Positions 2,287 to 22,886 of a DNA stretch of 64,000 bases are shown piece after piece (position 1 is the stretch's first letter; each line of letters starts with the position of its first letter). Origin of the DNA: a virus; the UHGV virus genome UHGV-1451962, one strand, 5' to 3'. Under the pieces are notes generated by a model, which was given only the letters and a program-made list of their open reading frames with translations, was not told where the DNA came from and did not search any database. A program made the position numbers and the translations under genes.

Positions 2287-2511
2287 TACCTTAAATTTTT
2301 AAAAAGTCAAATGCGGACTTTGACTTGACAAATTAAAAAAAATTTTTTTCCGAGCGGGTGAGCCACTTTCGGGAAAAACCCCGGCCATATGAAGGGTCGC
2401 TAGAAGTCTAGAAAAATCGCCATATGCTAGTGGAAAGGGGATTTCGGGCTGTGACCACTGTCCACAGCCCGCCACTCCTTATATATAGTATACCATAAAA
2501 CCAGCCTTATG

Positions 2512-2712
2512 TCAATCGGCATTTTCACCAAAAGTAAATTTTATTTTATTACTAGGACACTTCACGCACAAATACACATCTCCATTTTCTTCTTTTTGAA
2601 TATAAAAAGTAAATAACTGGCCGGTTTCCATTCCTAGATAATCTCTTAACTTAGAAGGGATAACTAATCGACCAGTCGAGTCCAGCTTTCTGGCAAATTC
2701 AGTTTTCAACAT
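2512..2712 (-). CDS. small AbrB/SpoVT-like DNA-binding protein
   Basis: 'GRLVIPSKLRDYLGMETGQ' resembles the AbrB swapped-hairpin N-domain motif (GRVVIP..LR..LGI). Confidence 0.45.
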   Translation of the reverse strand: MLKTEFARKLDSTGRLVIPSKLRDYLGMETGQLFTFYIQKEENGDVYLCVKCPSNKIKFTFGENAD

Positions 2713-2995
2713 ATCCAGATATTTTTTTCTGATGACCTAGACGTGCGAAATTTCAACCCTAAAACGGGCCTTTCTATCTCTAAAATCTTTAAAGTAATTT
2801 ACCACTCACAAGGCATCTTAGAACAGAAATCACGCATAACACAAACTTCGCAATTATCCTACTTTAGGCAGTATTCAATAATCACCGCAAGTACCTTTAA
2901 TAATTCACAGGTCATTAGAAAAGCTCCTTTCCTTAATTTCTATATATATTATAACATAATTTTTTAGAAAAAACAAAAAAGAACTCTGAGTATTC

Positions 2996-3463
2996 TCAGA
3001 GTTCTTTAGTTTCTGTCACAAAGTATTTGGCATTGTAATCCACCAGAATTTTCTTAACTTGGCTACTCTCCATTTGTGTGGCACAATAAACATTAAAAAT
3101 TGAATATTTACCTACATTTTCAATATAATTATGCGGAATTGAGTTTAGTCTTTCGTGAAGTTGTTTTGTAAATTCACCGGGGACAGTCACCTCAATTCGC
3201 CACAATTTTTCTTTTCTTCCTTTTGCTTCCGCCCACTTAACCGCATACACGCCAACCAGATTACAGCCAAAGGTAACTAATACCTTCTGCCACAGAGGGA
3301 AATCCGCGACTGTGTAAATAAGAACTATATTATAATAACCATAGTACAGAGCAGAAATCATGCTTGCGGAAAATGGTGTACCATTAATAGTTACAATGCT
3401 TTTGATTGTCGAAAAAACCACATTGGCAATGGAGAGACCAATAAATAACAAGAGTAAAGACAA
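2996..3463 (-). CDS. hypothetical membrane protein
   Basis: 155 aa with several hydrophobic segments (LLLLFIGLSIANVVF..., ALYYGYYNIVLIYTV...). Confidence 0.45.
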   Translation of the reverse strand: MSLLLLFIGLSIANVVFSTIKSIVTINGTPFSASMISALYYGYYNIVLIYTVADFPLWQKVLVTFGCNLVGVYAVKWAEAKGRKEKLWRIEVTVPGEFTKQLHERLNSIPHNYIENVGKYSIFNVYCATQMESSQVKKILVDYNAKYFVTETKEL

Positions 3464-3652
3464 TTAAATACCCGCCTTTCTGCACATCACAAAGAACTCT
3501 TCCAGAGGAACCCAAGCCCCATCAATAGTAATCAATGGCCACCAATCTCCTTCACATTCTTTGTCATAGTCCATGAAGTAGTCATAGGCTTTCTGCAAAG
3601 AATCAAACTTCGCAAAATCGCCGTTGTAGCGGTCAGTAATTTTGATAATCAT
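3464..3652 (-). CDS. hypothetical protein
   Basis: 62-aa ORF abutting the neighbouring ORFs in the same orientation. Confidence 0.35.
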   Translation of the reverse strand: MIIKITDRYNGDFAKFDSLQKAYDYFMDYDKECEGDWWPLITIDGAWVPLEEFFVMCRKAGI

Positions 3653-4242
3653 TATTCTTCATCCTCCTTTTCCCAGCAAACAATATATTGTGAGTATTCA
3701 CCATTTGGTTTAAGAAATTGAACCTTATAGCCTGCTTCCTCAAGTATTTGAGTAATAATTTTTGTATCTTCTAGAAGATTAATAGTAGCAGCAAATTTTC
3801 CATCTTCTGCGGCACTTAGAAGATTAAACATAATTTGCCCAAGGGCTTCAGTGATTACTGTAGATCTTGCTTGTAGTGTTTTATCAAGCATCCCTTTAGC
3901 ATCCAACCAGTTCGTAGGTTTTCTAATTTCTATTTCTACCTTCCTTTCTCTATGGAAGAGGGCTTTTCGGCCCTCTTCTTCTTCCATAACTACACCAGCA
4001 AGAATTAAAGTGTTGCAGATGCACTGCCAAGCATAAAGACCCATATTTTGGGGAATGGCTTCCCAAATCTCAGGCCGCAACTTCTTCAGGCCAGTTAGAA
4101 GCATACCGCCCCAGTCGCCACCGCAAGCAACGCACTTGTCCAAAAACTGGCCAAAGGTAATGTTTAACGGCTCACAGCTATCAATAGCTTCAAGAACATC
4201 CTCACCCCAGTTCTTTGCGATGAAGTCTCTGCGTTCATTCAT
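3652..4242 (-). CDS. hypothetical protein
   Basis: 196-aa ORF; promoter/RBS cassette upstream at ~4250-4300. Confidence 0.5.
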   Translation of the reverse strand: MNERRDFIAKNWGEDVLEAIDSCEPLNITFGQFLDKCVACGGDWGGMLLTGLKKLRPEIWEAIPQNMGLYAWQCICNTLILAGVVMEEEEGRKALFHRERKVEIEIRKPTNWLDAKGMLDKTLQARSTVITEALGQIMFNLLSAAEDGKFAATINLLEDTKIITQILEEAGYKVQFLKPNGEYSQYIVCWEKEDEE

Positions 4243-4560
4243 ACTATCAACCTCTTTCCTTAATTTCTGTATTCATTATAGCATCTTTGCCCTGGTTTGT
4301 CAAGACCTTTTTTATTTTTTTTGAAATTTTTAAATCCCCTTTCCTTTTGTGATTATATAATAACATAATTTTGGGAAAATGTCAATAAGTAAAATTGTAC
4401 AAATCAAAAGCAGAAAAATTGTGGAAAATGTATATTGACACGAATTCGGGCCACATCCACCAAGCGCGGCCCGTCGAGTTTTGTTATTGCTTTACTTTTG
4501 CTTATAACAAGTATAGGGATAAAAAAAGGATAGTGGCTATTAACCACTATCCTTTAATAA

Positions 4561-4812
4561 TCAAACATCTTCAATTACGATATTTTCGCCGATCTCTGCT
4601 AAGTTTTGCAAAATATCTGACGCTTCTCCCACTTTTGCGGCATCAATGGTTTCGTATTTGCCAATATAACTATTAGCAGACATCACCTCCCAAATTTGAT
4701 TAAGAATGTCAGAGGCTTGCTCAAGACGATCAATTTCTTCTTGGGATAAGCGAACCTCGCATTGCTTTTCAATAACAATCATGTTCTCTTCCTCCTTATA
4801 GTTCGATCTCAT
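4561..4812 (-). CDS. hypothetical protein
   Basis: 83-aa acidic ORF. Confidence 0.4.
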   Translation of the reverse strand: MRSNYKEEENMIVIEKQCEVRLSQEEIDRLEQASDILNQIWEVMSANSYIGKYETIDAAKVGEASDILQNLAEIGENIVIEDV

Positions 4813-5140
4813 AGGTTTTGCGGATAGTAACCTTTACTTTCTTGGGTTTTTGTTTACAGCAAAATCTGTCATTGCGGACAAATTCGCCGATAGAAGATTC
4901 CTGCCATGCTGCACGATTCTTATCCTCATATCGCAAAGTCGAATACTTAGACAAAGGCAGATGCCAATCATAGACAAACTTAGCGGATTTCGGCATAGTA
5001 AACTTAGGTGAACGCTTATAATTTCTGGTATGCTCTTGCTGTCTCCGGGCTAAATCATTAGTAGTGCCTATTTTGAGAATGTAGTTGCCTTCTACATCAA
5101 AATAGTGACCTACATACAAATACTCTTTCTTTTGTTGCAT
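4796..5140 (-). CDS. hypothetical protein
   Basis: 114-aa ORF. Confidence 0.45.
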   Translation of the reverse strand: MQQKKEYLYVGHYFDVEGNYILKIGTTNDLARRQQEHTRNYKRSPKFTMPKSAKFVYDWHLPLSKYSTLRYEDKNRAAWQESSIGEFVRNDRFCCKQKPKKVKVTIRKTYEIEL

Positions 5141-5197
5141 TTACATCACCTTTTTCGTCAAAATTAGCTCTTTTTTAAGTGAAAAGGGCCAAAAACT

Positions 5198-5587
5198 TTA
5201 CTTTTTGGCCCTTTTCTGAACTAAAGTCAACTCAAAGGCGTTATTATCAACAGAAAAAGCAATCTGTCGCTCAGGATTTGCAATTTTTACATCACAAATC
5301 CCCAAAGATTCAAGAAAACCTGCAAGTTCCGCAATCAAATTTGCTTTAGTGGGGTTCTCTTTTCTTTCTCTTTTAATAGGGGTCTTGCGGTCATGCTTCT
5401 TAGTATGTTGCCCGGTAATAGTATACTTCTTTGCTACCTTTTGTTGTTCCTCGGTCAAATCCCATTCATGCGGGATGCCTTTATCAACCTCGCAGTCTGC
5501 CTTATAGATTTCTACTGCTTTTTCATAACTGCACTTGATGCCAGCTTGGATTCTTGCGATTGCTTCTTTTGCTTTGTCCAAAAACAT
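5198..5587 (-). CDS. hypothetical basic protein, paralog of 9346..9708
   Basis: shares spaced motifs with the 9346..9708 product (D.G...L.EEQ.KV.KK ... NPER.I ... F..TL). Confidence 0.5.
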   Translation of the reverse strand: MFLDKAKEAIARIQAGIKCSYEKAVEIYKADCEVDKGIPHEWDLTEEQQKVAKKYTITGQHTKKHDRKTPIKRERKENPTKANLIAELAGFLESLGICDVKIANPERQIAFSVDNNAFELTLVQKRAKK

Positions 5588-5611
5588 ACCTCCCCTCTAG
5601 GGAAGAGGGCC

Positions 5612-6034
5612 TTAGCCCTCTTCCTCTTCTACCACGGCCTGCGCCTTGTAGAAATGGGCAATACCCTTGTGGGTATCCTTGTAAGCAATACCCTCAGAGA
5701 CAAGAGCCTTGCACATAGGGGCGATACGCTGGGGAGTCAAATCTTCCAGTTCAGGAATGGCCTTGCGGAGCATTGCAATGGTCATACCATCTTCGGTCAA
5801 CTGCTCGGCAATCAGAGCCTTAAAATGCTCATTCTCAGTCTGGCGGGCAGTCTGCTTGCGGGAATTAGAACCCTTCTTAGCATCCAGCAGGCGAATTTCA
5901 TTGGAGAGGAAATCGGTCAGACCCTCAAAGTCAAAACCTTCGTCCTCACGGCCTTCGCACAGTTCCACCAGCTCAATCAGAGACTGGAAACGCTCACGCT
6001 TAGTAATTCTCTTGTTAGTATTTTCCATAAACAC
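5612..6034 (-). CDS. hypothetical protein, paralog of 9768..10124
   Basis: C-terminal region 'TARQTENEHFKALIAEQL...IPELEDLTPQRIAPMCKALVSEGIAYKDTHKGIAHFY' parallels 'TATQTENARLIEVIADTL...IPELNGFTPQKVGPMLKKLVETGRATRDTNKGKAYY'. Confidence 0.5.
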   Translation of the reverse strand: MFMENTNKRITKRERFQSLIELVELCEGREDEGFDFEGLTDFLSNEIRLLDAKKGSNSRKQTARQTENEHFKALIAEQLTEDGMTIAMLRKAIPELEDLTPQRIAPMCKALVSEGIAYKDTHKGIAHFYKAQAVVEEEEG

Positions 6035-6369
6035 CTATCTCGCTTTTGGTTTTTAAGAGTTTGTCCTTCTCTTGATTACATGCTTATTATAGCATGTTTC
6101 TTGGGGTTTGTCAAGAGGTTTCGCAAACTTTTCACAAGATTTACGGCTTCCAGAGCATGTTGGGCAATAACAATTACCACATGATATAAGACTTACCACT
6201 TGATGTATTTCGTTTACTTCCTATACTTTCTCACAGGTCGGCCGCCCTAGGATTTCTTGGGCTACTTCCTCCTGACATTATTTATTATATCAGATTTCAC
6301 CCAAATTGCAATAGGCAAATTGTACAAAAAGCGGGATTTTCCTCAAATAAATTTTGTGCAGTTTAACTC

Positions 6370-6398
6370 TTGACAAATTTTGTGCCGCGTGGTATAAT
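6370..6398 (+). promoter_or_regulatory. near-consensus promoter on the plus strand, opposite to the surrounding genes
   Basis: TTGACA 6370-6375, 17-nt spacer, TGgTATAAT with TATAAT at 6393-6398. Confidence 0.5.
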
Positions 6399-6404
6399 TG
6401 AAAT

Positions 6405-6513
6405 TTCGGCGCTCCACAGTCGTGGGCGCCGCGCCATTGTATCATAAAGCTGCGGTTTTGTCAATAGGCAAAATGTACAAAAAAATGAGGGAAAAATCCC
6501 TCATTTCCTTTTC
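6405..6513 (+). ncRNA. candidate small RNA / antisense transcript
   Basis: downstream of promoter 6370-6398: GC-rich hairpin 'cggcgctccacagtcgtgggcgccg', no credible ORF, then hairpin 'atgagggaaaaatccctcat' (6486-6505) followed by a T-rich stretch. Confidence 0.25.
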
Positions 6514-6777
6514 CACTTTGTCAAGATCAGCTTTCAGACTGTCAAGTTCCTGCTCTTTGTCCATAGTTTTTAATTCAAGCGCAGTCTCTAAATAACGTAA
6601 GTAATTCTGATAGTCATCGGTGCTATACTCAGAAAAAGTGAACCCTTTTCCTCTGAACTTATCTCTTACACGAGTGACACTTTTATGACATTGAACACGT
6701 TCTTCATACACAGCATAACTATCAGTTCCTTTCTTAATTTCTGTATTTATTATAGCGTCTTTGCTTTGAATCGTCAA
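6442..6777 (-). CDS. doubtful ORF (true product probably shorter)
   Basis: ORF runs through its own promoter/RBS cassette (6725-6795) and uses a TTG start; first in-frame ATG is far downstream. Confidence 0.2.
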   Translation of the reverse strand: MTIQSKDAIINTEIKKGTDSYAVYEERVQCHKSVTRVRDKFRGKGFTFSEYSTDDYQNYLRYLETALELKTMDKEQELDSLKADLDKVEKEMRDFSLIFLYILPIDKTAAL

Positions 6778-6805
6778 TAGACAAATTGCACAAAGTGGAA
6801 GATTT

Positions 6806-7339
6806 TTATAACTTCATTCCATTTGTTTGAAATGCTTTAGCTACTTTATCAAAGCAATCTTCCATTTTAAGAATTTCCTGCTTCTTACTTTCTATCTGAA
6901 AAAGAAGATTTACATAAACTTCCTGAAGGTATTCCCGATACCCACTAGCATTGAAGGCGAAAGTATCTCGATAACAAATAGTAATATCACTTCTATTATA
7001 GTGGATGCCTAATTCTTCCCCACCATTAGCCGCGATCAGAGCTTCCTTTGCCGCCACCAGCAGCTCTCTGTATTCCTTATACTTCATAAGAAGCTCGCCG
7101 GCACGGTTTGTTACATAAGGAGCAGTTTCTCTGCATCTAGGCCCATTTGTATCATAGACCGGTGCTTTACCAACCACTTTGATGATATTGTGGTTGAAGA
7201 GAGTTTCCGCCTTAGAGCGTCCCTTACCACGAGCCGCATCATATTTATCAGAGGTGAAGGGTTTATCCCCGAACAGTTTAACAACCTGAGCAGCACCTTC
7301 CAGAACGCTATTGCAATTTTTGATAGAGAACATAATCAT
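6806..7339 (-). CDS. hypothetical protein
   Basis: ORF track start at 7342 is TTG; ATG at 7339 sits 5 nt after the RBS (complement of 'cctttcct'); promoter at 7366-7394. Confidence 0.55.
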   Translation of the reverse strand: MIMFSIKNCNSVLEGAAQVVKLFGDKPFTSDKYDAARGKGRSKAETLFNHNIIKVVGKAPVYDTNGPRCRETAPYVTNRAGELLMKYKEYRELLVAAKEALIAANGGEELGIHYNRSDITICYRDTFAFNASGYREYLQEVYVNLLFQIESKKQEILKMEDCFDKVAKAFQTNGMKL

Positions 7340-7365
7340 CAATTCCTTTCCTGTTTTCTGTTGTT

Positions 7366-7394
7366 ATTATATCATGCTTTTGCTTACTTGTCAA
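7366..7394 (-). promoter_or_regulatory. sigma-A-type promoter with extended -10 (TTGACA-N17-TGaTATAAT)
   Basis: -35 is complement of 'tgtcaa' 7389-7394; -10 is complement of 'attata' 7366-7371; TG at 7373-7374. Confidence 0.6.
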
Positions 7395-7611
7395 GAGATT
7401 TTATCAAATTGCTTGTATCTGTTTCAGTAAGAATTTTTTCCATCTCTTTGACAGATAAGCTGTCTACTTTTCTCTGGAAATCTTTGAGGAGTAAATCATC
7501 CCCACAGATTTCTTCCTCAATATCTACCCACTCTTTGTAAACATGGAGTAGTAAATATTCATCAGGTTCCATCAAAGAACCGCAGACAATGTAGCCATCA
7601 TCCAAAAGCAA
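7384..7611 (-). CDS. hypothetical protein
   Basis: 75-aa ORF. Confidence 0.35.
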   Translation of the reverse strand: MLLDDGYIVCGSLMEPDEYLLLHVYKEWVDIEEEICGDDLLLKDFQRKVDSLSVKEMEKILTETDTSNLIKSLDK

Positions 7612-7986
7612 ACCAGCGTGGACAACCCCTTCAAGGTCGAGAAATAATACCTACTTTGTCATTTGCAAAACTCCCTTTTGTTTTATTTTATCAGAGCGGC
7701 GCCTACTCTGACAGCTTTCTTGTTGTTTATTACTTTGGAGCAATAGAAAAAGCTAAGAAAATCTCCGCATCACTATATGGTTTTTATTTCGTTCATGTAA
7801 AACAACAGTGCAAACAAAATTCTGTAATAATTGGGTTAGCATGGCGGCGGGTGCCTGGTAATATCTATCATTCGCTTTACTCCTTTTTATTTATTTATTT
7901 GCCACTAAAACACTTTATCACCTCCCTTGACTGTACCTGTATTATATCACAGAAGAAAAGCTTTGTCAAGCCTTTTTTGCAATTTT

Positions 7987-8385
7987 TTAATCCTTAATAA
8001 GTTCTTTGGGAATAGTCCAACCAACGGCTCGGCAATAAGCAATAACCATACCAACCGCGGGAATGAAAGTGTCATTTGTTGTGGCTGTTGCTTTTCCAGT
8101 CAGGCGATGATTATTGCTGATAACTTCGCAAACAGTAGTTCTGCCCTCAATACTGAACTTTGCAGAAGTGCCATATAACATATGAGCATTGTCCTCTAAC
8201 CACTTCTGAGCAATAGAAGCCTTGCTTTCTGCGGATTGAACATACTTACGGAGAATAATTCCATCCGAACTGGTGCAAATTTCCAGTGGGTCTCCCTCCT
8301 GAATGTGCATGTTGCGGCGGATCTCCTTGGGGATGACCACCCGGCCCAGGTCGTCGATGCGGCGCACGATACCAGTAGTTTTCAT
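7987..8385 (-). CDS. AbrB-family transition-state-regulator-like DNA-binding protein
   Basis: N-terminus 'MKTTGIVRRIDDLGRVVIPKEIRRNMHIQEGDPLEI...GIILRKY' closely matches the AbrB N-domain (MKSTGIVRKVDELGRVVIPIELRRTLGI...IILKKY). Confidence 0.75.
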   Translation of the reverse strand: MKTTGIVRRIDDLGRVVIPKEIRRNMHIQEGDPLEICTSSDGIILRKYVQSAESKASIAQKWLEDNAHMLYGTSAKFSIEGRTTVCEVISNNHRLTGKATATTNDTFIPAVGMVIAYCRAVGWTIPKELIKD

Positions 8386-8452
8386 ATTTTTTTACTTCCT
8401 TTCTTTTACTGTATTTGTATTATACCATACAGTCCGGTCTTTGTCAAGCCTT

Positions 8453-9097
8453 TTATCTATCAAAACCGCTAAAATCCAAGATGATTGGGCGGTCATTTTT
8501 GTAACCAATGTTGGATTCGTGCAGGTCATTGATTCTGTTCTCAATGACAAACTCGCAAAGAGTTTTGCAAAGTCTTTTGCCATAGATAACAAGAGCCATC
8601 TTAGCCCAAAGAGGGTCTAAGTTTCTTGCATAGCGCCCATTAGGTGCCGCTTTCTTGAAACACTTGCCCATAAGCTGCGCTTTCTGGTCACTTGCGGTTT
8701 TGACCTTAGCCTTGTACTTCTTAAAGGTTTGATAGGAACAGCCACAAACCGCAAAGTCAATTTTCTCTTGCTTGATGAAGTTAATCCCATCTATCGTGCA
8801 GAAAAGCTCGGTCTTGGGGAAGAACATGCCCAAACCTGCTTTAACAGCTTTATTGTACATGTCAACCTCTTTAAGAGCTTCGTCATCAGTAAACTCATCA
8901 GGGTCAGAGTATGTCCACTTGATAACAAAGTCGGCTTTGTGAGGGATGAGACAAATTTTGCTGGAACCATAATCTATAGCGGCTTCACTTCCAAGCTTGA
9001 TTTCTCTCATTCTGCTCTGAATTTCCCAATCGGTCATGGAAGGGTCAATCCTTAACTCTTCAAGCCAATGAAGAACAGTCTGTTCCATCTTTGTCAT
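8453..9097 (-). CDS. hypothetical protein
   Basis: strong RBS (complement of 'ctcctccc' 9103-9110) precedes ATG at 9097 (MTKMEQ...); ORF track start 9166 is probably too far upstream. Confidence 0.5.
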   Translation of the reverse strand: MTKMEQTVLHWLEELRIDPSMTDWEIQSRMREIKLGSEAAIDYGSSKICLIPHKADFVIKWTYSDPDEFTDDEALKEVDMYNKAVKAGLGMFFPKTELFCTIDGINFIKQEKIDFAVCGCSYQTFKKYKAKVKTASDQKAQLMGKCFKKAAPNGRYARNLDPLWAKMALVIYGKRLCKTLCEFVIENRINDLHESNIGYKNDRPIILDFSGFDR

Positions 9098-9123
9098 GTT
9101 ATCTCCTCCCTTACTGTGATTAT

Positions 9124-9152
9124 AGTATAACACGGCAGGTCTTATTTGTCTA
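9124..9152 (-). promoter_or_regulatory. promoter (TAGACA-N17-TGtTATACT)
   Basis: read on the minus strand from 9152 down to 9124. Confidence 0.4.
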
Positions 9153-9211
9153 TTGGCGAAATGCACAAATTCGGAATTTTTGTCTGCCTAGTTTTTATGC
9201 ACTTTTGCCCA

Positions 9212-9240
9212 TTGACAAAAGTCGGATTACCTGGTATAAT
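9212..9240 (+). promoter_or_regulatory. near-consensus promoter on the plus strand, opposite to the surrounding genes
   Basis: TTGACA 9212-9217, 17-nt spacer, TGgTATAAT with TATAAT at 9235-9240. Confidence 0.5.
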
Positions 9241-9246
9241 TGAAAT

Positions 9247-9351
9247 GCGGCAGCGCTTGACCATGCGCGGGCCGCCAAACATTTACCATTGAGAAGTATT
9301 GGGCAAAAAAGAAAACCGGCCTATAAAAATAAGCCGGTTTTGTTATTATTT
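9247..9351 (+). ncRNA. candidate small RNA
   Basis: GC-rich hairpin 'gcggcagcgcttgaccatgcgcgggccgcc', no ORF, ends at bidirectional terminator hairpin 9312-9341 (aaaaccggc/gccggtttt) plus T-run. Confidence 0.25.
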
Positions 9352-9708
9352 TCTAGGAGCGCTTAATGTAATTTTGAAACGTCTTTCATTAAAAACTATC
9401 TCAATTTCTCGCTCTGGGTTATTGATGGTAGTTTCAATTTCAAGTTGTTCAAGAGATTCCGCAATAATCTCAATCAAGCGATGTTTGTCATTGTCAACCT
9501 TGCGCTGTCGGGGAGCATTCATAGTATATTTGCCTTTCTCTTTGCCGGATAACCGCATTTTCTTTTCTACTTTCTTTTGTTCATCAGTAAGTGGGAAAAG
9601 GTCTGCACCTTTATCTATTGCTTCATCATCAGCAATAACTGCCAAAGCTTGTTTTCTATCAAGGTCTAACACCTTCTGAAGATGTTTAACCCTAGCTTCA
9701 TCTATCAT
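9346..9708 (-). CDS. hypothetical basic protein, paralog of 5198..5587
   Basis: 120-aa ORF; see paralog motifs. Confidence 0.5.
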   Translation of the reverse strand: MIDEARVKHLQKVLDLDRKQALAVIADDEAIDKGADLFPLTDEQKKVEKKMRLSGKEKGKYTMNAPRQRKVDNDKHRLIEIIAESLEQLEIETTINNPEREIEIVFNERRFKITLSAPRK

Positions 9709-9732
9709 TAAACACCATCCTTTTTGAGAAAA

Positions 9733-9757
9733 TAAAGAGGGGCATTAAGCCCCTCTT
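9733..9757 (-). terminator. intergenic hairpin between 9768..10124 and 9346..9708
   Basis: stem aaagaggggc/gcccctcttt with 5-nt loop. Confidence 0.4.
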
Positions 9758-9767
9758 TATTTAATTA

Positions 9768-10124
9768 TTACACCATAGTGTAGTATGCCTTGCCCTTGTT
9801 GGTGTCACGAGTGGCTCGGCCAGTTTCAACCAGCTTCTTGAGCATGGGGCCAACCTTCTGAGGGGTAAAACCGTTCAGCTCAGGAATGGTCTTGGTAATG
9901 TCGGAAATGGTGAAAGCTTCGCCCTTGGGCAGAGTGTCAGCAATCACTTCAATCAGACGTGCGTTCTCAGTCTGAGTTGCAGTAGGCTTACCGCTACCAC
10001 GGCTCTTATTCTCCTGCTGATGAAGCAGAATCTCAATCTTGGCACGAACATCGGCAGGAATCTCGCAGTTGTCCAGAACATACTGAAGAGCGCCCTTGTT
10101 AGTAATCTTCTTCTCGTTAGTCAT
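9768..10124 (-). CDS. hypothetical protein, paralog of 5612..6034
   Basis: 118-aa ORF; see paralog motifs. Confidence 0.5.
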   Translation of the reverse strand: MTNEKKITNKGALQYVLDNCEIPADVRAKIEILLHQQENKSRGSGKPTATQTENARLIEVIADTLPKGEAFTISDITKTIPELNGFTPQKVGPMLKKLVETGRATRDTNKGKAYYTMV

Positions 10125-10233
10125 AATATCAATTCCTTTCTGTGCGGTAGGTCGCTACCCTAATTGTTAAGGAAGTGGGGAGGGTTTTCTCTCCCTCACT
10201 TCTCTTATATTATATCATTTTCCTTTTGTTTTG

Positions 10234-10941
10234 TCAAGCGGTTTTTTGATTTTCAAAAAGTTTTTTCCGCATTTTCTTCTTTTGCCGATAGCAGTAAATC
10301 ATAATCTCCCGCTCAATCCGCACATCGTCAAGACCTTTATGTTCTTCCTGAAAAGTGGGGTCTTTGATGATGAATCTATACAGATTTTCTGCTGTTGCTG
10401 AGAGTTTACCAGTTTTGGTTAAGAAACCGTGTTGTTCACAGAACCTTTTATAGGTAGGCATCTTTAGAATAACATCTCTTGCCATTTTGAGAGTATCCCA
10501 AATATCGGTACCATAGGGGAACCAATACCGATATTTACTCTTAGTAGTCCAGCGTTGAAGTAAATTCAATGCGTTCAGGTCGAATCTTGCATTGTGGGCG
10601 ACTACCTCTGTAATACCATATTCTGCCATGTCTGCAAGCATAGCTTGTCGAATCTGGTAAGTGTTAGCTATTTGTCGGATGCCCTGTCGAATATCTTCCA
10701 GATACTGGGGAATCTTTTCCGCATAATAGGCGGATTTCATAAGCTCACTTTCATCAAAGAAAATATCTCGATTAACAAAGGATTGTTCCTTGTAGATATT
10801 CCCTCTTGTATCCATAACACACCACCCGCAATCATAGACAAGAACTGAGGTCATGTCTAATCGGCCTTTTTGGTCAGTGATGGTGTTCGCTGTCTCAGTG
10901 TCCAGAAGCAGAACGTAATGTCTGCGCTTGTCAATGCTCAT
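10234..10941 (-). CDS. DnaQ-like (DEDDh) 3'-5' exonuclease
   Basis: Exo I motif 'LLLDTETAN' and Exo III motif 'VVAHNARFDLNAL'. Confidence 0.65.
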   Translation of the reverse strand: MSIDKRRHYVLLLDTETANTITDQKGRLDMTSVLVYDCGWCVMDTRGNIYKEQSFVNRDIFFDESELMKSAYYAEKIPQYLEDIRQGIRQIANTYQIRQAMLADMAEYGITEVVAHNARFDLNALNLLQRWTTKSKYRYWFPYGTDIWDTLKMARDVILKMPTYKRFCEQHGFLTKTGKLSATAENLYRFIIKDPTFQEEHKGLDDVRIEREIMIYCYRQKKKMRKKLFENQKTA

Positions 10942-10974
10942 GTTGCATCTACCTCTTCCTTAATTTCTGTACTT

Positions 10975-11003
10975 ATTATATCAGATTTTTTCTCATTTGT
11001 CAA
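10975..11003 (-). promoter_or_regulatory. sigma-A-type promoter with extended -10 (TTGACA-N17-TGaTATAAT)
   Basis: -35 is complement of 'tgtcaa' 10998-11003; -10 is complement of 'attata' 10975-10980; RBS complement of 'cctcttcc' 10953-10960. Confidence 0.6.
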
Positions 11004-11022
11004 GAACTTTTTGGCTCCCTGC

Positions 11023-11478
11023 TTAAAGCAGGGAAGCCAAGAAATCAATGATGTCACAAGTTTCAGGATTGACAGTTTCTCCCAAATGCCAACTGTCACG
11101 AACTTTCTTATTATCATCAATAAGAATTGCCTTAGATGCTTTTCTACGAACAGCATCCGCTTTAGTGGCTCCATACTTTAGACCATGAAAGTGGTCATAG
11201 GGGAAACCCCATTTCAAGAGCCAAGCCTTTTTAGCTTCTCGCACAGCCTTTGCATACTCAGGGCTGCTTTCTTTAGAAAGCCAAGTGATGATTGCAATCT
11301 CCCAACCAGCCTGTTTTAACTTGTTAATAAGCTCGTTAAGCTTATCCACGTCCCACATGGGTTTAGCTTCCAGGTAAGGGCTTGTATCTTCCTTCCGCAG
11401 CTTAGACAGCCAACCATTAACCCCATACAGGTCAGCAATAGTGCCGTCCATATCAAAAGCCAACATTTTGTCAGTCAT
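11023..11478 (-). CDS. HAD-superfamily phosphatase / nucleotidase-like protein
   Basis: HAD motif I 'FDMDGTIAD' near the N-terminus; start taken at the MTDK ATG (an in-frame TTG at ~11487 is also possible); ORF track start 11586 runs through the promoter. Confidence 0.55.
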   Translation of the reverse strand: MTDKMLAFDMDGTIADLYGVNGWLSKLRKEDTSPYLEAKPMWDVDKLNELINKLKQAGWEIAIITWLSKESSPEYAKAVREAKKAWLLKWGFPYDHFHGLKYGATKADAVRRKASKAILIDDNKKVRDSWHLGETVNPETCDIIDFLASLL

Positions 11479-11536
11479 AAGTGTCAACTTCTTTCCTTTA
11501 TTTCTATGGTAATTATACCACGGTAAGGCCCAAATG

Positions 11537-11722
11537 TCAAGCCTTAATTTCTTCAATGTCAAGAAGAATTTCACCAGTAGAATCATCTACCAAGTAATAC
11601 ATTGTAGTAGCATACTGAGCTAACCTATGAAAGAAATCCTCTGCCAATGAAAAGGAATCAAAAGGCCCGATAATTTCTTCATCGCCAACATGATAGATAG
11701 AATAAGTCTGCTTCATATGCAA
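11537..11722 (-). CDS. hypothetical protein
   Basis: 61-aa ORF. Confidence 0.3.
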   Translation of the reverse strand: MHMKQTYSIYHVGDEEIIGPFDSFSLAEDFFHRLAQYATTMYYLVDDSTGEILLDIEEIKA

Positions 11723-11731
11723 TACCTCCTA

Positions 11732-11889
11732 TCAAAAGATATGAATGAGAGTTTCATTCCCATTCTCTTCCAGATGACACTCATAGACAGAGCCTTTCTT
11801 GCGGGTTGCGTTCCGCATTGCGATACCCTTGTTATCAAAGTGTATCTGCCAACCATTGGGGAAAACTACCAGCCAGTCACGGTATTCGG
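11732..11889 (-). CDS. hypothetical small protein
   Basis: RBS (complement of 'ggcctccttttg') precedes 'MTEYRDW...'; the longer ORF-track version (to 12124) crosses promoter sequence. Confidence 0.35.
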
Positions 11890-12049
11890 TCATACTTTTG
11901 GCCTCCTTTTGTTTTCTGTAATTATTATAACAAAAATTTTTAAGAAATTCAATAATCAATTTTGATGATGTTTTGTCGCTATACTTTTTATAAACAAATG
12001 CCATTTCGGGATGAATACTTCCGGGTAAAATCACCAAACTTTCCTCTAA

Positions 12050-12115
12050 ATTTTTGTGCAATTTGCGCATTGACAGAATTTCGGCGCACACTGGGAGGTC
12101 ATGGTCGTGTGCGCG
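12050..12115 (+). other. third copy of the GC-rich hairpin element (cf. 6405-6440, 9247-9280)
   Basis: 'gaatttcggcgcacac...gtgtgcgcgccgccgc' shares the 'aatttcggcgc...gcgcc' core with the 6400 element. Confidence 0.3.
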
Positions 12116-12185
12116 CCGCCGCAATTATTATACCATACTTTTGCTTTGTTGTCAATAGATAAATTGAACAAAAAATTTTTATTTA

Positions 12186-12203
12186 TTTTTTTTTTTTTTT
12201 TTT
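12186..12203. repeat. 18-nt homopolymer T tract
   Basis: uninterrupted run of 18 T on the plus strand. Confidence 0.9.
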
Positions 12204-12250
12204 ACTGCTAGAAGCCTAGAAGTTTCATCATATAAGCATATAGCAAAAAT

Positions 12251-12273
12251 AAAAAGGGCCGCAAGGCCCTTTT
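12251..12273. terminator. bidirectional rho-independent terminator
   Basis: 'aaaaagggccgcaaggcccttttt': GC stem gggcc/ggccc, loop gcaa, flanked by A-run and T-run. Confidence 0.6.
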
Positions 12274-12570
12274 CACTTCCAAGTTTTTTCAAGTGGATTT
12301 TTGTTTATTTTACCGGAACCTTAATGGCCCACAAGCTTTCTAAACAGTCAAGCCCTATGTAAGACTCGCTCGCTTTTTCAAAAAGCTTTTTCTCCACTTC
12401 CTCCAAAGTCATGCAGAGATATTCTTCAAAGAAGTCAGGAGAAGCGTCTTTCTGTATCCTCGCAATCATCTCTTTTATTGTTGTTGCTTTGTCATAGGCT
12501 CATTACCATACTGGTCAGAAACTATAATGACGTAAGCATCTTTCTTTATAATAATCAACTCCTTTTCTTT

Positions 12571-12903
12571 TTACCACATGTCAACGTAGTGCTGTTTGTC
12601 ATTGGGATACTTGTGCTTAACAAGCGTGGCACATTCCTCATCATCGGTCGCAAGTCTGAGTTTGCTATCCACCAGAGCCACCAGCTCAGGAGCAGCTTCC
12701 TTGTAAAGAACTTCCAGCAGTTCTTTCAGAGCGCCTTTACCATAATAGCGGTAGTCCTCAGCAGTAATCTTCCAGACCATGATTTTCTCAGGGTCATAAC
12801 CGCAGTTGGGATAGTAGAGAGTCAAGTCTCCATCGTGAAGCACATAAGCGCTTTCATAGTAGGTTGCGGTGTACTGACTGTCGAATAGTTCCTTGTTAGT
12901 CAT
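12571..12903 (-). CDS. hypothetical protein
   Basis: 110-aa ORF with promoter/RBS cassette upstream. Confidence 0.55.
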   Translation of the reverse strand: MTNKELFDSQYTATYYESAYVLHDGDLTLYYPNCGYDPEKIMVWKITAEDYRYYGKGALKELLEVLYKEAAPELVALVDSKLRLATDDEECATLVKHKYPNDKQHYVDMW

Positions 12904-12934
12904 CTTTTGTTTCCCCTTTTTTTATCTTGATTAT

Positions 12935-12963
12935 ATAATACCATAATTTTGAGAAAACGTCAA
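12935..12963 (-). promoter_or_regulatory. promoter (TTGACG-N17-TATTAT)
   Basis: almost identical to the promoter upstream of 3652..4242 ('ttttcYcaaaattatgKtattatataatca'). Confidence 0.5.
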
Positions 12964-13054
12964 TAAGTAAAAATGCACAAATTAAGAATAAAAATTTGTA
13001 CAATACAAACAAAAGAAAAAGGAAGGCCGCAAAACCTTCCTTTTTCACTGCTGT

Positions 13055-13420
13055 TTAGAACAAATCTTGAAGCTGTTGAATAGCTTCATCAATATTGCAC
13101 CAGTTACCAGTGTGTTCATTGAGCACCAAGAGGGCTTCTTCTCCCGGAGTAAGAGAAGGAATTTTACAGTTGAAGCTAATGAAATAGCGCTTGAGCAATT
13201 CAACGGCTTCTTTATTACCATCGCACAAGATAGCAATAATAGGTGCAGGATTAGCTTTAAGGTTGAGCTTGACTTCGCCGAGCTTATCATACAGCTTGAA
13301 GCTATCCTCGCAACGCTTCGCCATTTCTTCCATCTCATGCAAGTTGCAGCTGTCATAGTCCTCAAAAACCTCACCGCAATACTCACAGAAGTAGACTGTC
13401 TTTTTCAACATAAAAATCAT
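13055..13420 (-). CDS. hypothetical Cys-containing (zinc-binding-like) protein
   Basis: 'CEYCGEVFEDYDSCNLHE' near the N-terminus. Confidence 0.45.
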   Translation of the reverse strand: MIFMLKKTVYFCEYCGEVFEDYDSCNLHEMEEMAKRCEDSFKLYDKLGEVKLNLKANPAPIIAILCDGNKEAVELLKRYFISFNCKIPSLTPGEEALLVLNEHTGNWCNIDEAIQQLQDLF

Positions 13421-13477
13421 CCTTTCTTTTATTATGGTCTTATTATACCACAGACTAAGCTTCTTGTCAAGACTTTT

Positions 13478-13650
13478 TTACAAACATTCAACCACTTCCC
13501 AAATCTGCTGATACTCTTCATAAGAGTTGGCGAAATCATTCTTACTGGCTTCATCGCGGCCCTCTTCTTTAATCCATTCCTTCCACTTGTCAAGGATCGC
13601 CTTGTTAGCTTTGTCCATCTTAACACCAATGATCTTCTTGATGTTCTTCA
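13478..13650 (-). CDS. hypothetical small protein
   Basis: RBS (complement of 'cccctttcctttt') precedes ATG of 'MKNIKKIIG...'; ORF track start 13726 overlaps the promoter. Confidence 0.4.
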
Positions 13651-13893
13651 TTTGTTTTATCCCCTTTCCTTTTGTAATTATATAATAACACACTTGCCGC
13701 AATAGGTCAATAGGCATACTGCACAATTCGGGATCCCAATTCTCTCTCTAAATTTAGCTATTTTGACTATTGATTTTGAGCAGACTTTGTGGTATACTGA
13801 TTCGGAAAGTTGCCTTGTAAAACGAAGACATTCGTTTATAACAAGTATGTTAAACAAAAGGAAAGAGATAAGCTAAGCTTACCTCTTCTCCTA

Positions 13894-14109
13894 TCATACT
13901 ACTTCATACTCATCATACTTCTTAGCCAAGACTAATACTTCCTGATATATCTTCTTTGGTATAATGTAAGCCCTCCAACGCAGGTCGCCATTAGGTTTGA
14001 AAGAAGTCTTTCTCCAACCAAAGAAGCATCTCCATAGAAAGCTTTTGCCCTCACAATACATTTCAATAAAATCTATCATACATTCATTGTCTATCCAGTA
14101 TTTTTTCAT
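13894..14109 (-). CDS. hypothetical protein
   Basis: 71-aa ORF. Confidence 0.35.
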   Translation of the reverse strand: MKKYWIDNECMIDFIEMYCEGKSFLWRCFFGWRKTSFKPNGDLRWRAYIIPKKIYQEVLVLAKKYDEYEVV

Positions 14110-14309
14110 ACTTCTCCAACCTCTCTTTTATTTTTAACCTTACAAAGTTCAATCTTGATTGCCTGACCATCAGGAAAGACTAAGCACTTGCGCAAACCAG
14201 AAGGAAAGCGAAACCATTGAACTTTAGCCCACTGCCAACTTTCTCCCTGGTAGTTGTTTCGCCATGTCTTAACAGGTGAGCAAGCATAGAACTCAAAAGT
14301 CTTTTTCAT
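14106..14309 (-). CDS. hypothetical protein
   Basis: 67-aa ORF overlapping the next gene start by 4 nt (coupled arrangement). Confidence 0.35.
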   Translation of the reverse strand: MKKTFEFYACSPVKTWRNNYQGESWQWAKVQWFRFPSGLRKCLVFPDGQAIKIELCKVKNKREVGEV

Positions 14310-14415
14310 TTGATCTTTCCTCCTTTTACTATCTATAGTATACCATACCTTAACCAGAATGTCAATACCTTTTTCATTTATTTATTTATAAAATAAAAAA
14401 GAAAAATGGTTCTGC

Positions 14416-14763
14416 TCATTTAAGAGCAGAACCATTCCAGAAGCCAAGAATCATGTCATCATAGACAAAACCTGGTGTAGCATTGTCATCAATAGCAATG
14501 AGAACGTCCTCACCTTTCACAAGGCCATCATCATCAATGGCGTACAGGTTGCCATCACGCATGTCTTTCAATGTCACACATCCATCATCATGAGTTGCAG
14601 TAACAGTAGCGCGAACCAGACGAACAGTATTCATACCATAGTGGATGCTGTTTGTTGCACAGTATCTGGCATTTTCAGCAGGAGTGCTAAGAGCGCAAGC
14701 AGAAGTAGTGAGAGCAGAGATAACGATTGCCAGAACAGCGATGATAGAGAAGAACTTTTTCAT
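14416..14763 (-). CDS. secreted protein / possible lipoprotein
   Basis: N-terminal signal peptide 'MKKFFSIIAVLAIVISALTTSACA' with a lipobox-like L-T-T-S-A-C. Confidence 0.5.
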   Translation of the reverse strand: MKKFFSIIAVLAIVISALTTSACALSTPAENARYCATNSIHYGMNTVRLVRATVTATHDDGCVTLKDMRDGNLYAIDDDGLVKGEDVLIAIDDNATPGFVYDDMILGFWNGSALK

Positions 14764-15104
14764 AGGTCATTGACCCCTTTCCTTAATTTCTGTATTTATT
14801 ATACCATCAAGACAGCCTTTTGTCTATTGACACATTGAACAAAAGAAAAAGAAATTAAAAGTTCTTCTTTGTGCATTTTGCTGAAGAATAATTTTGTTTA
14901 ATTCGCCTATTGACAAGACCATTTTTCTTTTGATTAATGAATAGTTGTTTACAGAAGATACTGTTTGATGGGGCCTTTGTGGGGTTAATGGATATTTACC
15001 AATGAAAGATAGTTTAATGGTTTGGCGTACTCCGGGGTAGTTTTCGGGAAAAAAATTATATTTGTTATTAAAAACCATTTGGCCTGGACACTTCTCTCTC
15101 TAAG

Positions 15105-15240
15105 TCAATTTTAAATTTAAAAAACGAATTTTTCTAAATCAATTTCAAATTTAAAAAACGACTTTCCATAAACTATTTTCAAATTTAAAAAACGAATTTT
15201 TCTAAATCAATTTTAAATTTAAAAAACGAATTTTTTAAAA
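15105..15240. repeat. 4 tandem copies of a ~34-bp repeat
   Basis: 'tcaattttaaatttaaaaaacgaatttttctaaa' at 15105-15138, 15139-15172 (variant), 15173-15206, 15207-15240. Confidence 0.85.
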
Positions 15241-17141: not shown

Positions 17142-17714
17142 TCAGCCATAACAAAAGTACGTGGTAGACTTCCACCAACCTGTGTCAACTTTACTCACCT
17201 CATAAGTTCCTTTTCCTTGGCGAAATTGCGCTTGATAAATTACATTTTTGGGGCAATTAACTCTACCTTCAAGCGCCAATCTAGCATTATCATAACATCT
17301 TTGTGAAATTTGCGGTCTTGCAGTTACGTACCATGCGGCATACTGCCGAGGCTGCATAACAACAGCCTTAACAGTACTGGGGAATCTGGAATCTGCAACT
17401 CTATTCAAAACTACTTGCGCCACTAATTGCTGATGGCGATCCGGGCAATTACCAGCTTCATAATGAATAACAGTAGCAAGAATCCGCAAATCTTCATCGG
17501 AATAAGTTTTAGTGTTATATACTTCCCACCAAACTTCTTTAGCTCTTGTTATAATAGGGTCGCTTTCCGGCAAACCCATAGAACGTGCAGTTTCTGCGAT
17601 ATTATGCGCCTTATCTAATTGCGCTGCTTTTTCAGCAGTAGTGAAACTGCACATAGTTAAAATACAAAAAATACTTGCGGCGATGAGGCCGCATTGTCGA
17701 AACTTTCTTTTCAT
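17142..17714 (-). CDS. SleB/CwlJ-like cell-wall hydrolase (candidate endolysin)
   Basis: signal-peptide-like N-terminus plus 'VIHYEAGNCPDRHQQLVAQVVLNRVADSRFPSTVKAVVMQPRQYAAW', typical of Hydrolase_2 / SleB. Confidence 0.6.
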   Translation of the reverse strand: MKRKFRQCGLIAASIFCILTMCSFTTAEKAAQLDKAHNIAETARSMGLPESDPIITRAKEVWWEVYNTKTYSDEDLRILATVIHYEAGNCPDRHQQLVAQVVLNRVADSRFPSTVKAVVMQPRQYAAWYVTARPQISQRCYDNARLALEGRVNCPKNVIYQAQFRQGKGTYEVSKVDTGWWKSTTYFCYG

Positions 17715-17727
17715 TTATTTCTCTCCT

Positions 17728-18327
17728 TTAATTTTTGTAATAGCCGTTAGCTAAACCTAACTCAATGGCTTTATCCGCAGGAATATACCATTCAGCTTTT
17801 CTGTTAATATAATCATCTAATGTCTCTTGCTCAATAGCAGAAGTAGAAGTAATTTCTTTACAAATAATTTTTTGTAATCTTAGTGTTTCATCTAATTCCT
17901 GTTTAATGCCCGCAGTTTTATCCCAAATCCACGAAGCAATATCATGGAACATTAAAGTTGAATGTTCACCTACATATCTCTTATGACCTGCAAGATAAAT
18001 CCAAAAACCCATACTCATACTAGAACCAATAGAAATAGTATACACCGGGGTTTTACTCTGTTTAATGACATCTACTAAACTAAGTCCATCATAAACACTA
18101 CCACCAAAACAGTTAATAAAGAGTTTAATAGGTTCTCTTTTCCAATCTTTATAATCTTCTTCTTTGCAATCGTCATCATAATTAATTTTCATAATTGTCT
18201 CAATAATATTTTTAACTGATTCTGCTTTAATATCTTCGCTTAGAAAAATATTGCGGTAGGTTGGAATAGGTTTACTCATAATCTTCAAAATCCTCCTCAT
18301 TCTCTTCTTCAAAAGAAGAACTTTCAA
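17728..18327 (-). CDS. ClpP-family serine protease (possible prohead protease)
   Basis: 'FINCFGGSVYDGLSLVDVIK...PVYTISIGSSMSMGFWIYLAG...LMFHD' resembles ClpP/S14 motifs. Confidence 0.5.
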   Translation of the reverse strand: MKVLLLKKRMRRILKIMSKPIPTYRNIFLSEDIKAESVKNIIETIMKINYDDDCKEEDYKDWKREPIKLFINCFGGSVYDGLSLVDVIKQSKTPVYTISIGSSMSMGFWIYLAGHKRYVGEHSTLMFHDIASWIWDKTAGIKQELDETLRLQKIICKEITSTSAIEQETLDDYINRKAEWYIPADKAIELGLANGYYKN

Positions 18328-21091: not shown

Positions 21092-21720
21092 TAATGGCAT
21101 TACAACAATTATTAGAATTATCTAATAATAGAAAGAAAATAGGTATTTCAGAAGAGAGAATAAGAGCTATCTTGCCTGTTGCTCGTCAATATGTTTCTTT
21201 TTGGCGAGAATATCCAGATTTATTTGTGGATTTTTTACAGGATGGAGGAGATAGTTCTCGTAAAAAACAGCTAGAATTTTACTACTATCAGCGTGTCTTC
21301 CTTAGGGCTGCGATGCGCTACAAATATGTATACATGACCTTTCCTCGAGCGTACAGTAAATCTTTCCTTTCAATTTTGGTTTTGATGTGTCGTTGTGTAC
21401 TTTATCCTGGTGCAAAATTGTTTGTTACTTCTGGCGGTAAAGAGCAGGCAGCTACAATTGTGAAAGAAAAGGTAGAAGAAATATGTAAACTTGTACCAGC
21501 CTTTAAAAAAGAAATTGATTGGGGAAGAGGACAAACTCAAATTAGTAAAGATTATTGTATATATAAATTTAAAAGTGGTAGTTATTTTGATATTGTAGCA
21601 GCTAAAGAAAGTTCACGTGGTAAACGTAGACATGGTGGACTAGTTGAGGAATGCGTTGGTGTAGATGGAACTATATTAAATGAAGTGATAATCCCTAGTT
21701 CGTGGGGCCTTATAGCGTGA
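21088..21720 (+). CDS. terL: terminase large subunit, N-terminal (ATPase) portion; 3' end is an exon/intron junction, not a true stop
   Basis: 210-aa ORF with deviant Walker-A-like 'PRAYSKS'; partner ORF 23961..24971 carries the nuclease-domain motifs; RBS 'gagaggagaa' precedes ATG 21088 and 21094. Confidence 0.5.
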   Translation: MIMALQQLLELSNNRKKIGISEERIRAILPVARQYVSFWREYPDLFVDFLQDGGDSSRKKQLEFYYYQRVFLRAAMRYKYVYMTFPRAYSKSFLSILVLMCRCVLYPGAKLFVTSGGKEQAATIVKEKVEEICKLVPAFKKEIDWGRGQTQISKDYCIYKFKSGSYFDIVAAKESSRGKRRHGGLVEECVGVDGTILNEVIIPSSWGLIA

Positions 21721-22717: not shown

Positions 22718-22886
22718 ATATTTTTTGACAATGAACGTTTCACGTAGATGCATGGATGGTTCTGTCCACCCTGAAGAGTCCTTAAACAAGTCACAAATAT
22801 ACGTTAATTTTTTGGTCAAAAAAGTTACAAGAGTATAAGCTAATTTTCATTATAAATAGATGATATTAATGAAAAGAGGTTTAATT

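Follow-up and report, generated by a model that had tools for sequence, protein, structure and literature searches.

Upstream of the early genes in the virus genome UHGV-1451962, a short box recurs directly next to the -35 hexamer of promoters, and the locus raises the question of whether this box is a regulatory element and, if it is, what reads it. The stretch analyzed here (the window, 64,000 nt) is part of the genome of an uncultured siphophage. Its plus-strand genes from 18.8 to ~59 kb encode terminase, portal, capsid, a 2871-aa tape measure and tail proteins, and a block of small genes on the minus strand at 2.4–15 kb is the early block. The early block (2400–15000) has 38–42% G+C, compared with 26–33% in the remaining phage DNA, including the plus-strand genes. 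Sigma-A-type promoters, TTGACA-17-(TGn)TATAAT, were found 66 times in the window against 23 expected, mostly at 2.5–18.7 kb, and the promoters of the early block conform to this sigma-A (sigma-70 type) pattern of TTGACA, a 17-bp spacer and (TGn)TATAAT. We report that the box is a real cis-regulatory element, conserved across a very large phage family.

The box is enriched upstream of the -35 hexamer

An initial annotation of the window had listed nine copies of the box, and each of these is present within a few bases. Four further boxes lie on the plus strand (those starting at 6352, 9192, 12053 and 14868), together with degenerate copies on the minus strand (from 2510) and the plus strand (from 13745; Table 1). 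The box accompanies 13 of the ~27 promoters and is not a feature of every early promoter. With up to three mismatches allowed, the 22-mer gave 6 matches in the window against 0.01 expected. The core TTTGTDCAWTT gave 12 matches against 1.34 expected, a number reached in 0 of 100 shuffles, and 9 of the 12 fall within 4.4–14.9 kb. A blind count of 6-mers in the 30 nt upstream of the -35 at 27 promoters, in which 448 words were tested, placed TGTGCA (p = 5e-8), TTGTGC and TGCCTA at the top (p from 5e-8 to 9e-7), so that enrichment extends beyond the -35 and -10 hexamers; a lack of such enrichment, which the annotation had named as refuting its view, is not what the count shows. Taken together with the promoter catalogue, the enrichment in the window supports its view of the box as a cis-regulatory element attached to the -35. 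CCGAAATTT was rejected as a separate enriched motif (12 occurrences in the window, 29 expected). Full-text searches for the motif strings returned unrelated papers only, and a description of the motif was not found in the searchable literature.

The motif is TTTGTGCAWTTT and is asymmetric; its consensus is 5'-(A)AWTTTTGTGCAWTTTGMCTA-3', ending at the -35. The family consensus, TTTGTGCA(A/T)TTT, is likewise asymmetric, with G4, G/A6 and C7 of TTTGTGCA among the most conserved columns and the G, T, R, C and A positions at nearly 2 bits each. The box had been described as containing the palindrome TTGTACAA. This is a minority form: G predominates at the fifth base of TTGTNCAA and the eighth is as often A as T, so that the family consensus is no palindrome, and the orientation of the box to the promoter is fixed. 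The asymmetric consensus rules out a TTGTACAA palindrome or CRP/FNR-like dimer site. Two further possibilities were discarded, namely that the box and the -35 form an inverted repeat (at weak promoters the -35 does not retain its ACA) and that the box serves as an alternative -35 (no -10 lies at the right distance).

The box marks a second class of early promoters

In the window, 12 protein-coding promoters are without the box. In 11 of these an A-tract (AAAAAGGY) abuts a perfect TTGACA, in most cases with a perfect TATAAT as well; the exception, P11952, has TTGAAT as a weak -35. The A-tract beside the -35 looks like a proximal upstream promoter (UP) subsite. The leader ACAGAAATTAAGGAAAGG is common to many of the A-tract promoters.

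At the 13 box sites the core lies 16 or 17 bp upstream of the -35. Seven of the promoters drive protein genes (P4385, P6311, P6777, P9152, P12963, P13710 and P14826) and have one or two hexamer mismatches each; a perfect -35 is present in 1 of these 7, compared with 11 of the 12 box-less promoters (Fisher p = 0.0017). Four others, P6370(+), P6464(-), P9212(+) and P12155(-), are perfect or near-perfect and are followed immediately by a GC-rich hairpin. The remaining box sites are 12053–12075, with TTGACA and no -10, and 14868–14915, where tandem cores are combined with a poor -10. Box promoters form a second class of early promoters of the sigma-A type.

Position and orientation of the box are fixed among relatives

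The exact pattern TTTGTRCAWTTTNNCTATTGAC, comprising box and -35, occurs in at least 119 IMG/VR loci, and homologues of window proteins are encoded in 88 of the at least 119 matching loci listed. An earlier locus search with a single protein had given one relative only, and a profile of the early exonuclease found at least 566 relatives in IMG/VR. From this profile, and independently of the box, 79 related loci (1.5 Mb) were chosen; the counts given below for relatives refer to this set.

The core is carried by 223 of 1358 promoters. It stands 16 bp (n = 127), 17 bp (n = 21), 26 bp (n = 30), 27 bp (n = 10) or 37 bp (n = 8) from the -35, always in one orientation, and the spacings of 16, 26 and 37 bp form a 10-bp ladder in step with the DNA helix. 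Cores in reverse orientation are nearly confined to 38–40 and 48–50 bp and there serve divergent partner promoters as boxes; inverted box pairs favour spacings of 23 or 33 bp. Across phages whose exonucleases are only 25–68% identical, the box is nearly invariant while spacers and flanks have diverged.

Perfect hexamers are less frequent where the box is present. Among hairpin-free promoters the -35 is perfect in 50% with the box versus 75% without (p = 9e-9), and among promoters followed by a ribosome-binding site in 30% versus 78% (p = 2e-20); the -10 is perfect in 43% versus 73% (p = 3.5e-12). An A-tract adjoins the -35 in 53% of box-less promoters, in 12% of those with the box at 16 bp and in 60–82% of those with the box at 26 or 27 bp. 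Thus, the box replaces the A-tract at 16/17 bp, and the two coexist when the box stands one turn further out. In a few relatives a plain T-tract or A-tract occupies the position of the box at equivalent hairpin promoters.

The closest named relative is the metagenomic phage phAss-1, with a portal protein 38% identical; Enterococcus phages of the EF1 group are more distant. The host of phAss-1 is predicted to be a member of the Clostridia (Eubacteriales), in a paper that contains no promoter analysis (PMC10607447). The complete phAss-1 genome has 6–7 boxes, confined to its early region at 126.7–133 kb and including a perfect TTTGTGCATTTTGCCTATTGACA. BLAST of the box and promoter string matched phAss-1 and fecal contigs only, and megablast of the region against GenBank phages gave a single 100-bp match. 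Among cultured relatives, no box was found in the 40 kb examined of Enterococcus phage EF1 or in the whole genome of Enterocloster phage PMBT24, and no laboratory system for the box emerged.

The box is kept in a promoter of presumed hosts

In 596 Gb of prokaryotic genomes the box pattern was found at 90 loci, 51 of which are phage-like contigs binned into metagenome-assembled genomes (MAGs) from gut or rumen. A further 16 of the 90 are the promoter of the chromosomal operon for acpP, phosphopantetheinyl transferase and fructose-bisphosphate aldolase (fba) in Clostridia/Oscillospiraceae MAGs, where contigs reach 244 kb, with the box 16 bp from the -35. Upstream of the box, acpP promoters (L123, L127, L151, L161, L294–L299 and others) have phased ATTTTG repeats, and at L174, L175 and L199 the promoter region of the neighbouring xerC-like gene contains one more core.

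These 16 acpP loci were picked by the box pattern itself, and a second set of acpP loci was fetched from metagenomes by protein similarity only. Where the acyl carrier protein was at least 72% identical, 6 of 6 loci keep a TTGTGCA or TTGTTTA core while the flanks have diverged; in four the distance from core to -35 is 16 bp, and in others it is 49–60 bp, once with cores in tandem. The core was found in 0 of 37 more distant acpP loci, many of which have an A-tract and TTGACA. Other chromosomal matches precede the gene for a hydrogenase subunit (with tandem cores), rimM, nrdD and a lipoprotein gene. The nrdD matches (L139 and L152) overlap what we take to be an NrdR-box-like sequence, which may explain them.

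The annotation had regarded the box as a site that coordinates the early genes. It does define a coordinated subset of early promoters; a phage-only operator is not supported, given its presence in chromosomal acpP promoters.

Box promoters and GC-rich hairpins

Among relatives, the box is associated with the promoters of GC-hairpin RNAs (odds ratio 5.7, p = 4e-22). Modules of box, promoter and GC-rich hairpin occupy 6350–6512, 9192–9346, 12053–12172 and 2440–2532 of the window, and in many cases another box promoter is directed towards the first. The predicted RNAs are 40–100 nt long, with a GC hairpin at the 5' end (fold z -5.9, -3.5 and -3.9), and between copies the stem sequence differs while the pairing is kept. 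Facing promoters were found at 69 of 177 hairpin promoters in relatives, and the gap from -10 to -10 is 28–38 nt, so that two polymerases cannot occupy both promoters at once. No Rfam family was found at gathering thresholds in the window or in 18 host loci, and no tRNA genes were found in either.

At 12053–12075 and in relatives such as L226–L236 and L249–L255, the box and TTGACA are followed directly by AAAACTCGG and a hairpin, without a -10. Viewed from the opposite side, the same arrangement is a hairpin and U-tract terminator followed by a reversed box. As it recurs in divergent relatives, it is probably selected. A run of ~22 T residues (12181–12204) lies directly upstream of the P12155 box.

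What reads the box

Our preferred reading, to which we would give about an even chance, is that the box is a positively acting, helix-phased upstream promoter element of siphophages of uncultured gut Clostridia and that its reader is probably a host protein. That a protein binds the box, that it activates and that the host encodes it are three steps that we infer from sequence. The fixed orientation, the positions at whole helical turns, the exclusion of the A-tract at the proximal position and the weak -35 and -10 hexamers suggest an upstream activating element. The high information at the G/C positions favours a sequence-specific transcription factor over direct contact by the polymerase alpha subunit's C-terminal domain (alpha-CTD), and a host-encoded reader is favoured because the same box is kept in the same position in the chromosomal acpP promoter.

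According to this scheme, a DNA-binding protein would occupy the box from the helical face on which RNA polymerase lies, with the core centered near -48 or displaced upstream by one or two helical turns, and would recruit or stabilize the polymerase as happens at a class I activator site or a UP element. The phage would run two types of promoter from such sites, protein-coding promoters with imperfect hexamers and very strong promoters for small GC-hairpin RNAs, and a subset of early transcription would be coupled to a host regulator. At hairpin-RNA promoters and at boxes without a -10, the bound protein could instead hold the polymerase or block read-through. A more specific proposal, possible but tentative, is that the box is the site of an undescribed global transcription factor, or of a lineage-specific polymerase contact, in uncultured Oscillospirales-type Clostridia of gut and rumen. 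Phages would have copied it to tie part of their early program to host physiology, including the pairs of convergent promoters that transcribe into a common GC hairpin and yield 40–100-nt RNAs.

Several observations weigh against an activator supplied by the host. The box promoters of hairpin RNAs have a perfect -35, -10 and extended -10, and an activator should be unneeded there. Some boxes without a -10 have their TTGACA directly beside terminator hairpins, downstream of a facing promoter, and are possible roadblocks or operators; inverted box pairs at a fixed spacing of 23 or 33 bp also resemble operators. The host evidence comes mainly from one operon in one clade, and the core is uncommon at other promoters in 229 kb of host loci. 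Finally, two early protein families of the phages, one with a winged helix and one small and basic (p120), are almost universal among relatives, which leaves room for a phage-encoded reader.

We consider it less likely that a phage regulator of this kind, with the duplicated winged-helix protein and its partner p120 as candidates, is made from box-less immediate-early promoters and reads the box. Like p4 of phage phi29, it would switch on the weak box promoters as a delayed-early class, shut off the strong hairpin-RNA promoters, or do both. Both candidates are transcribed from box-less consensus promoters, P10237 and P6114, and the weak hexamers of box promoters would fit a delayed-early class. 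The two genes form a cassette, winged-helix protein then p120, that is duplicated on the minus strand (5198–6034 and 9346–10124), and both gene pairs adjoin box clusters. The winged-helix family is present in 78 of the 79 related loci, and in the model its C-terminal 65 residues take the form of a winged helix like that of ArsR, PadR and MarR. For p120, present in 75 of 79 loci, no structural neighbour was found; phAss-1 has two copies in its box-bearing early region, and none was found in 40 kb of the box-less EF1. However, the chromosomal acpP promoters keep the box, and no host would maintain a site for the protein of a phage. The winged-helix family is also present in EF1, which has no box in the 40 kb examined, and across the 79 loci the presence of any early-protein candidate within +/-10 kb does not correlate with the number of boxes.

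It is unlikely that no separate factor takes part and that the box, as a lineage-specific UP-element variant, is in direct contact with the alpha-CTDs of the host polymerase or with sigma region 4. The box spans about -37 to -57, which is the window of UP elements (about -38 to -59, upstream of the -35), and its A/T-rich flanks (AAATTTTT...CAATTT) overlay the UP consensus AAAWWTWTTTTNNNAAA, reportedly set out by Estrem et al. in 1999. Its orientation is fixed, A-tracts and T-tracts are interchangeable with it at equivalent promoters of relatives, and it also stands 10 and 21 bp further upstream, displaced by whole turns as flexibly tethered alpha-CTDs would allow. In contrast to the pure A/T of AAAWWTWTTTTNNNAAA, the box has an almost invariant GT(G/A)CA core, and positions of nearly 2 bits at G, T, R, C and A argue for major-groove reading by a transcription factor, not for the minor-groove A/T contacts of alpha-CTDs. 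Ordinary A-tract promoters are also used by the same phages and hosts; moreover, the box is restricted to a subset of promoters and one host clade, and is rare in hosts and not a general feature of strong promoters.

The annotation had named two AbrB-like proteins as binders (Table 1), and we regard it as very unlikely that these AbrB/SpoVT-like proteins bind the box as an operator. The open reading frame (ORF) at 7987–8385 has a bona fide SpoVT/AbrB N-domain, which is DNA-binding (E = 4e-17 to 2ro5), and is made from a box-less promoter, and AbrB-like genes are common in the family, lying within +/-10 kb in 44–54 of the 79 loci. An AbrB/SpoVT operator would be expected to occur with its cognate protein wherever the sites are used, and this is not the case: profile hidden Markov models of both families match no ORF in complete phAss-1, even at E<=10, despite its consensus boxes, and 17–23 loci with at least 3 boxes have no such gene within +/-10 kb. 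The box is asymmetric and lacks the TGGNA-type motif that is the AbrB consensus, and it occurs in the host chromosome. The AbrB-like proteins therefore appear to be poor candidates for the reader.

Equally improbable is a box without any function in initiation, carried along in duplicated promoter cassettes (P4385 and P12963 are paralogous cassettes with a common spacer and leader) or acting as RNA through pairing of read-through or antisense transcripts (the P6370(+) RNA contains the antisense of the P6464 box), since the box is nearly invariant where spacers and flanks have diverged, the strict 16/26/37-bp phasing and fixed orientation are promoter features at the DNA level, the host acpP promoter conserves the box and the P9212(+) RNA has no antisense box.

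Features of the window

Table 1 Box sites, box-less promoters and candidate readers in the window. Coordinates of box sites cover the box plus the -35, and sequences are read on the promoter strand.
Feature	Position	Strand	Description
Degenerate box and -35 of P2515	2510–2532	-	TTTGGTGAAAATGCCGA; then GC hairpin 2443–2470
Box and -35 of P4385	4380–4403	-	TTTGTACAATTTTACTTATTGACA; TTTGTACAATTTTACTTA then TTGACA; core 17 bp from -35; in tandem with box-less P4303, 82 bp upstream of P4303
Box and weak -35 of P6311	6306–6328	-	TTTGTACAATTTGCCTATTGCAA; TTGCAA, 16-nt spacer, TGATATAAT
Box and -35 of P6370	6352–6375	+	Consensus promoter; ~100-nt RNA with GC hairpin at start; faces P6464(-)
GC-rich hairpin	6405–6431		Between facing P6370(+) and P6464(-); 5' end of both transcripts; z -5.9 (plus-strand RNA)
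Box and -35 of P6464	6459–6481	-	T-run is also U-tract of terminator 6485–6505
Box and -35 of P6777	6772–6794	-	-35 TTGACG
Box and weak -35 of P9152	9147–9169	-	-35 TAGACA; preceded by ATTCCGAA; drives ORF 8453–9097
Variant box and -35 of P9212	9192–9217	+	TTATGCA, 17 bp from -35; ~100-nt RNA with 5' GC hairpin, ending at bidirectional terminator near 9310–9343
Box and TTGACA without -10	12053–12075	+	Abuts GC hairpin; arrangement recurs in relatives
Box and -35 of P12155	12150–12172	-	TTGTTCA variant; consensus promoter; leader is GC hairpin 12083–12118
Box and -35 of P12963	12958–12981	-	-35 TTGACG; second core TTGTACAA ~25 bp further upstream, near 12996–13003
Extended box and -35 of P13710	13705–13737	-	GGGATCCCGAATTGTGCAGTATGCCTA; -35 TTGACC; center GGGATCCC common to P13710 and divergent, degenerate P13770(+)
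Degenerate box copy	13745–13775	+	
Box and weak -35 of P14826	14821–14843	-	TTGTTCA; -35 TAGACA
Tandem cores	14868–14915	+	TTTGTGCATTT, then TTTGTTTAATT 25 bp on; TTGACA, poor -10 (ATTAAT)
Box-less A-tract promoters	4303, 6114, 7394, 7969, 8447, 10237, 11003, 11540, 13470, 14365, 18697	-	
AbrB/SpoVT-like protein	7987–8385	-	132 aa; from box-less P8447
Short AbrB/MraZ-like ORF	2512–2712	-	66 aa; MraZ/MazE-like
Winged-helix protein	9768–10124	-	Paralogue 5612–6034; family in 78/79 related loci
p120	9346–9708	-	Small basic protein, fold without assignment; paralogue 5198–5587; in 75/79 related loci

Beside the early block, the minus strand encodes a ClpP-like protease (PF00574, E = 9e-23) and a cell-wall hydrolase (PF07486) at 17142–18288. 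A 34-bp tandem repeat (TCTAAATCAATTTTAAATTTAAAAAACGAATTTT, 4.2 copies) at 15099–15239 lies on the border between the 40% G+C early block and 30% G+C DNA and could be iterons or an origin. Upstream of the portal gene, two ORFs conserved in phAss-1 (21088–21720 and 23961–24971) mark the terminase region by position only, without a domain match; a GIY-YIG endonuclease ORF (22860–23669) and the ORF at 21998–22717 sit between them, an arrangement that suggests a split or intron-invaded gene at 21088–24971. The minus strand at 60051–63998 encodes a reverse transcriptase (PF00078, E = 7e-15), a small ORF (61727–62191) and an Ig-like (Big_3) protein, and looks like a diversity-generating retroelement.

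Relation to known sites and implications

The box appears to be an upstream promoter element or transcription-factor site, a known type with an unusual reach that takes in hundreds of uncultured gut phages and a host promoter. In the Bacillus phages phi29 and Nf, 0A boxes (5'-TGTCGAA-3') for the host protein Spo0A lie in early promoter regions, one of them 26–27 bp upstream of the -35 of promoter A2b (PMC2731898). The box described here would similarly be an asymmetric site of 7 bp for a host factor, placed among the early promoters of a phage; its 26/27-bp class matches the A2b distance, boxes can stand in tandem about one helical turn apart and the flanks are similar (TTTGT..AA). However, the two bases in the middle are exchanged, CG in the 0A box being GC, AC or TC here, and the phi29 sites repress, whereas the statistics presented here suggest activation. 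A canonical Spo0A box was rejected on its counts, with TTGTCGA at 163 versus TTGTGCA at 845 in the 1.5 Mb of relatives and 2 versus 7 in the early region of the window; the box takes the forms TGTGCAA, TGTACAA and TGTTCAA.

Class I activator sites include those of CRP at -61.5 and -72.5, and the marbox of MarA/SoxS is an asymmetric monomer site. The box shares with them dependence on the helical face (16/26/37 bp), a marbox-like dependence on orientation and weak core elements. It differs in that it is not two-fold symmetric 5-N6-5, and its match to the marbox is only GCAC. A symmetric CRP/FNR-type site (5-N6-5 or 5-N4-5) was likewise excluded, as forward cores occur only at 16, 17, 26, 27 and 37 bp. 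The phage-encoded regulator p4 of phi29 activates a weak promoter and represses strong ones, and in the same way one type of upstream site at weak and at very strong promoters could give opposite outcomes here. Unlike the box, p4 sites are inverted repeats centered further upstream, and p4 is encoded by the phage; no p4 homologue was seen here, where no search for one was made. In middle promoters of the T4 type, the MotA box replaces the -35 near -30, and this class was rejected because box promoters keep a TTGACA-like -35 with a 17-bp spacer.

Little is known of how transcription is organized in uncultured Clostridia of gut and rumen or in their phages. Our analysis distinguishes two promoter classes from sequence alone in hundreds of phage genomes and offers a precise element of 12–20 bp that obeys positional rules, namely one orientation and a distance of 16, 26 or 37 bp to the -35. 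The convergent-promoter/GC-hairpin module attached to the box is unexplained and worth a study of its own. If an undescribed host transcription factor does read the box, the phages would provide a counterpart of the relation between Spo0A and phi29, with another factor and the other sign, and the modules of box, promoter, hairpin, promoter and box would represent a new phage regulatory RNA or a promoter-competition switch. The chromosomal acpP counterpart provides a route to the identity of the reader. Should this be a regulator of the host, the motif would hint, from sequence alone, at the host lineage of these phages and would also supply a strong, possibly regulated promoter part for genetically intractable Clostridia.

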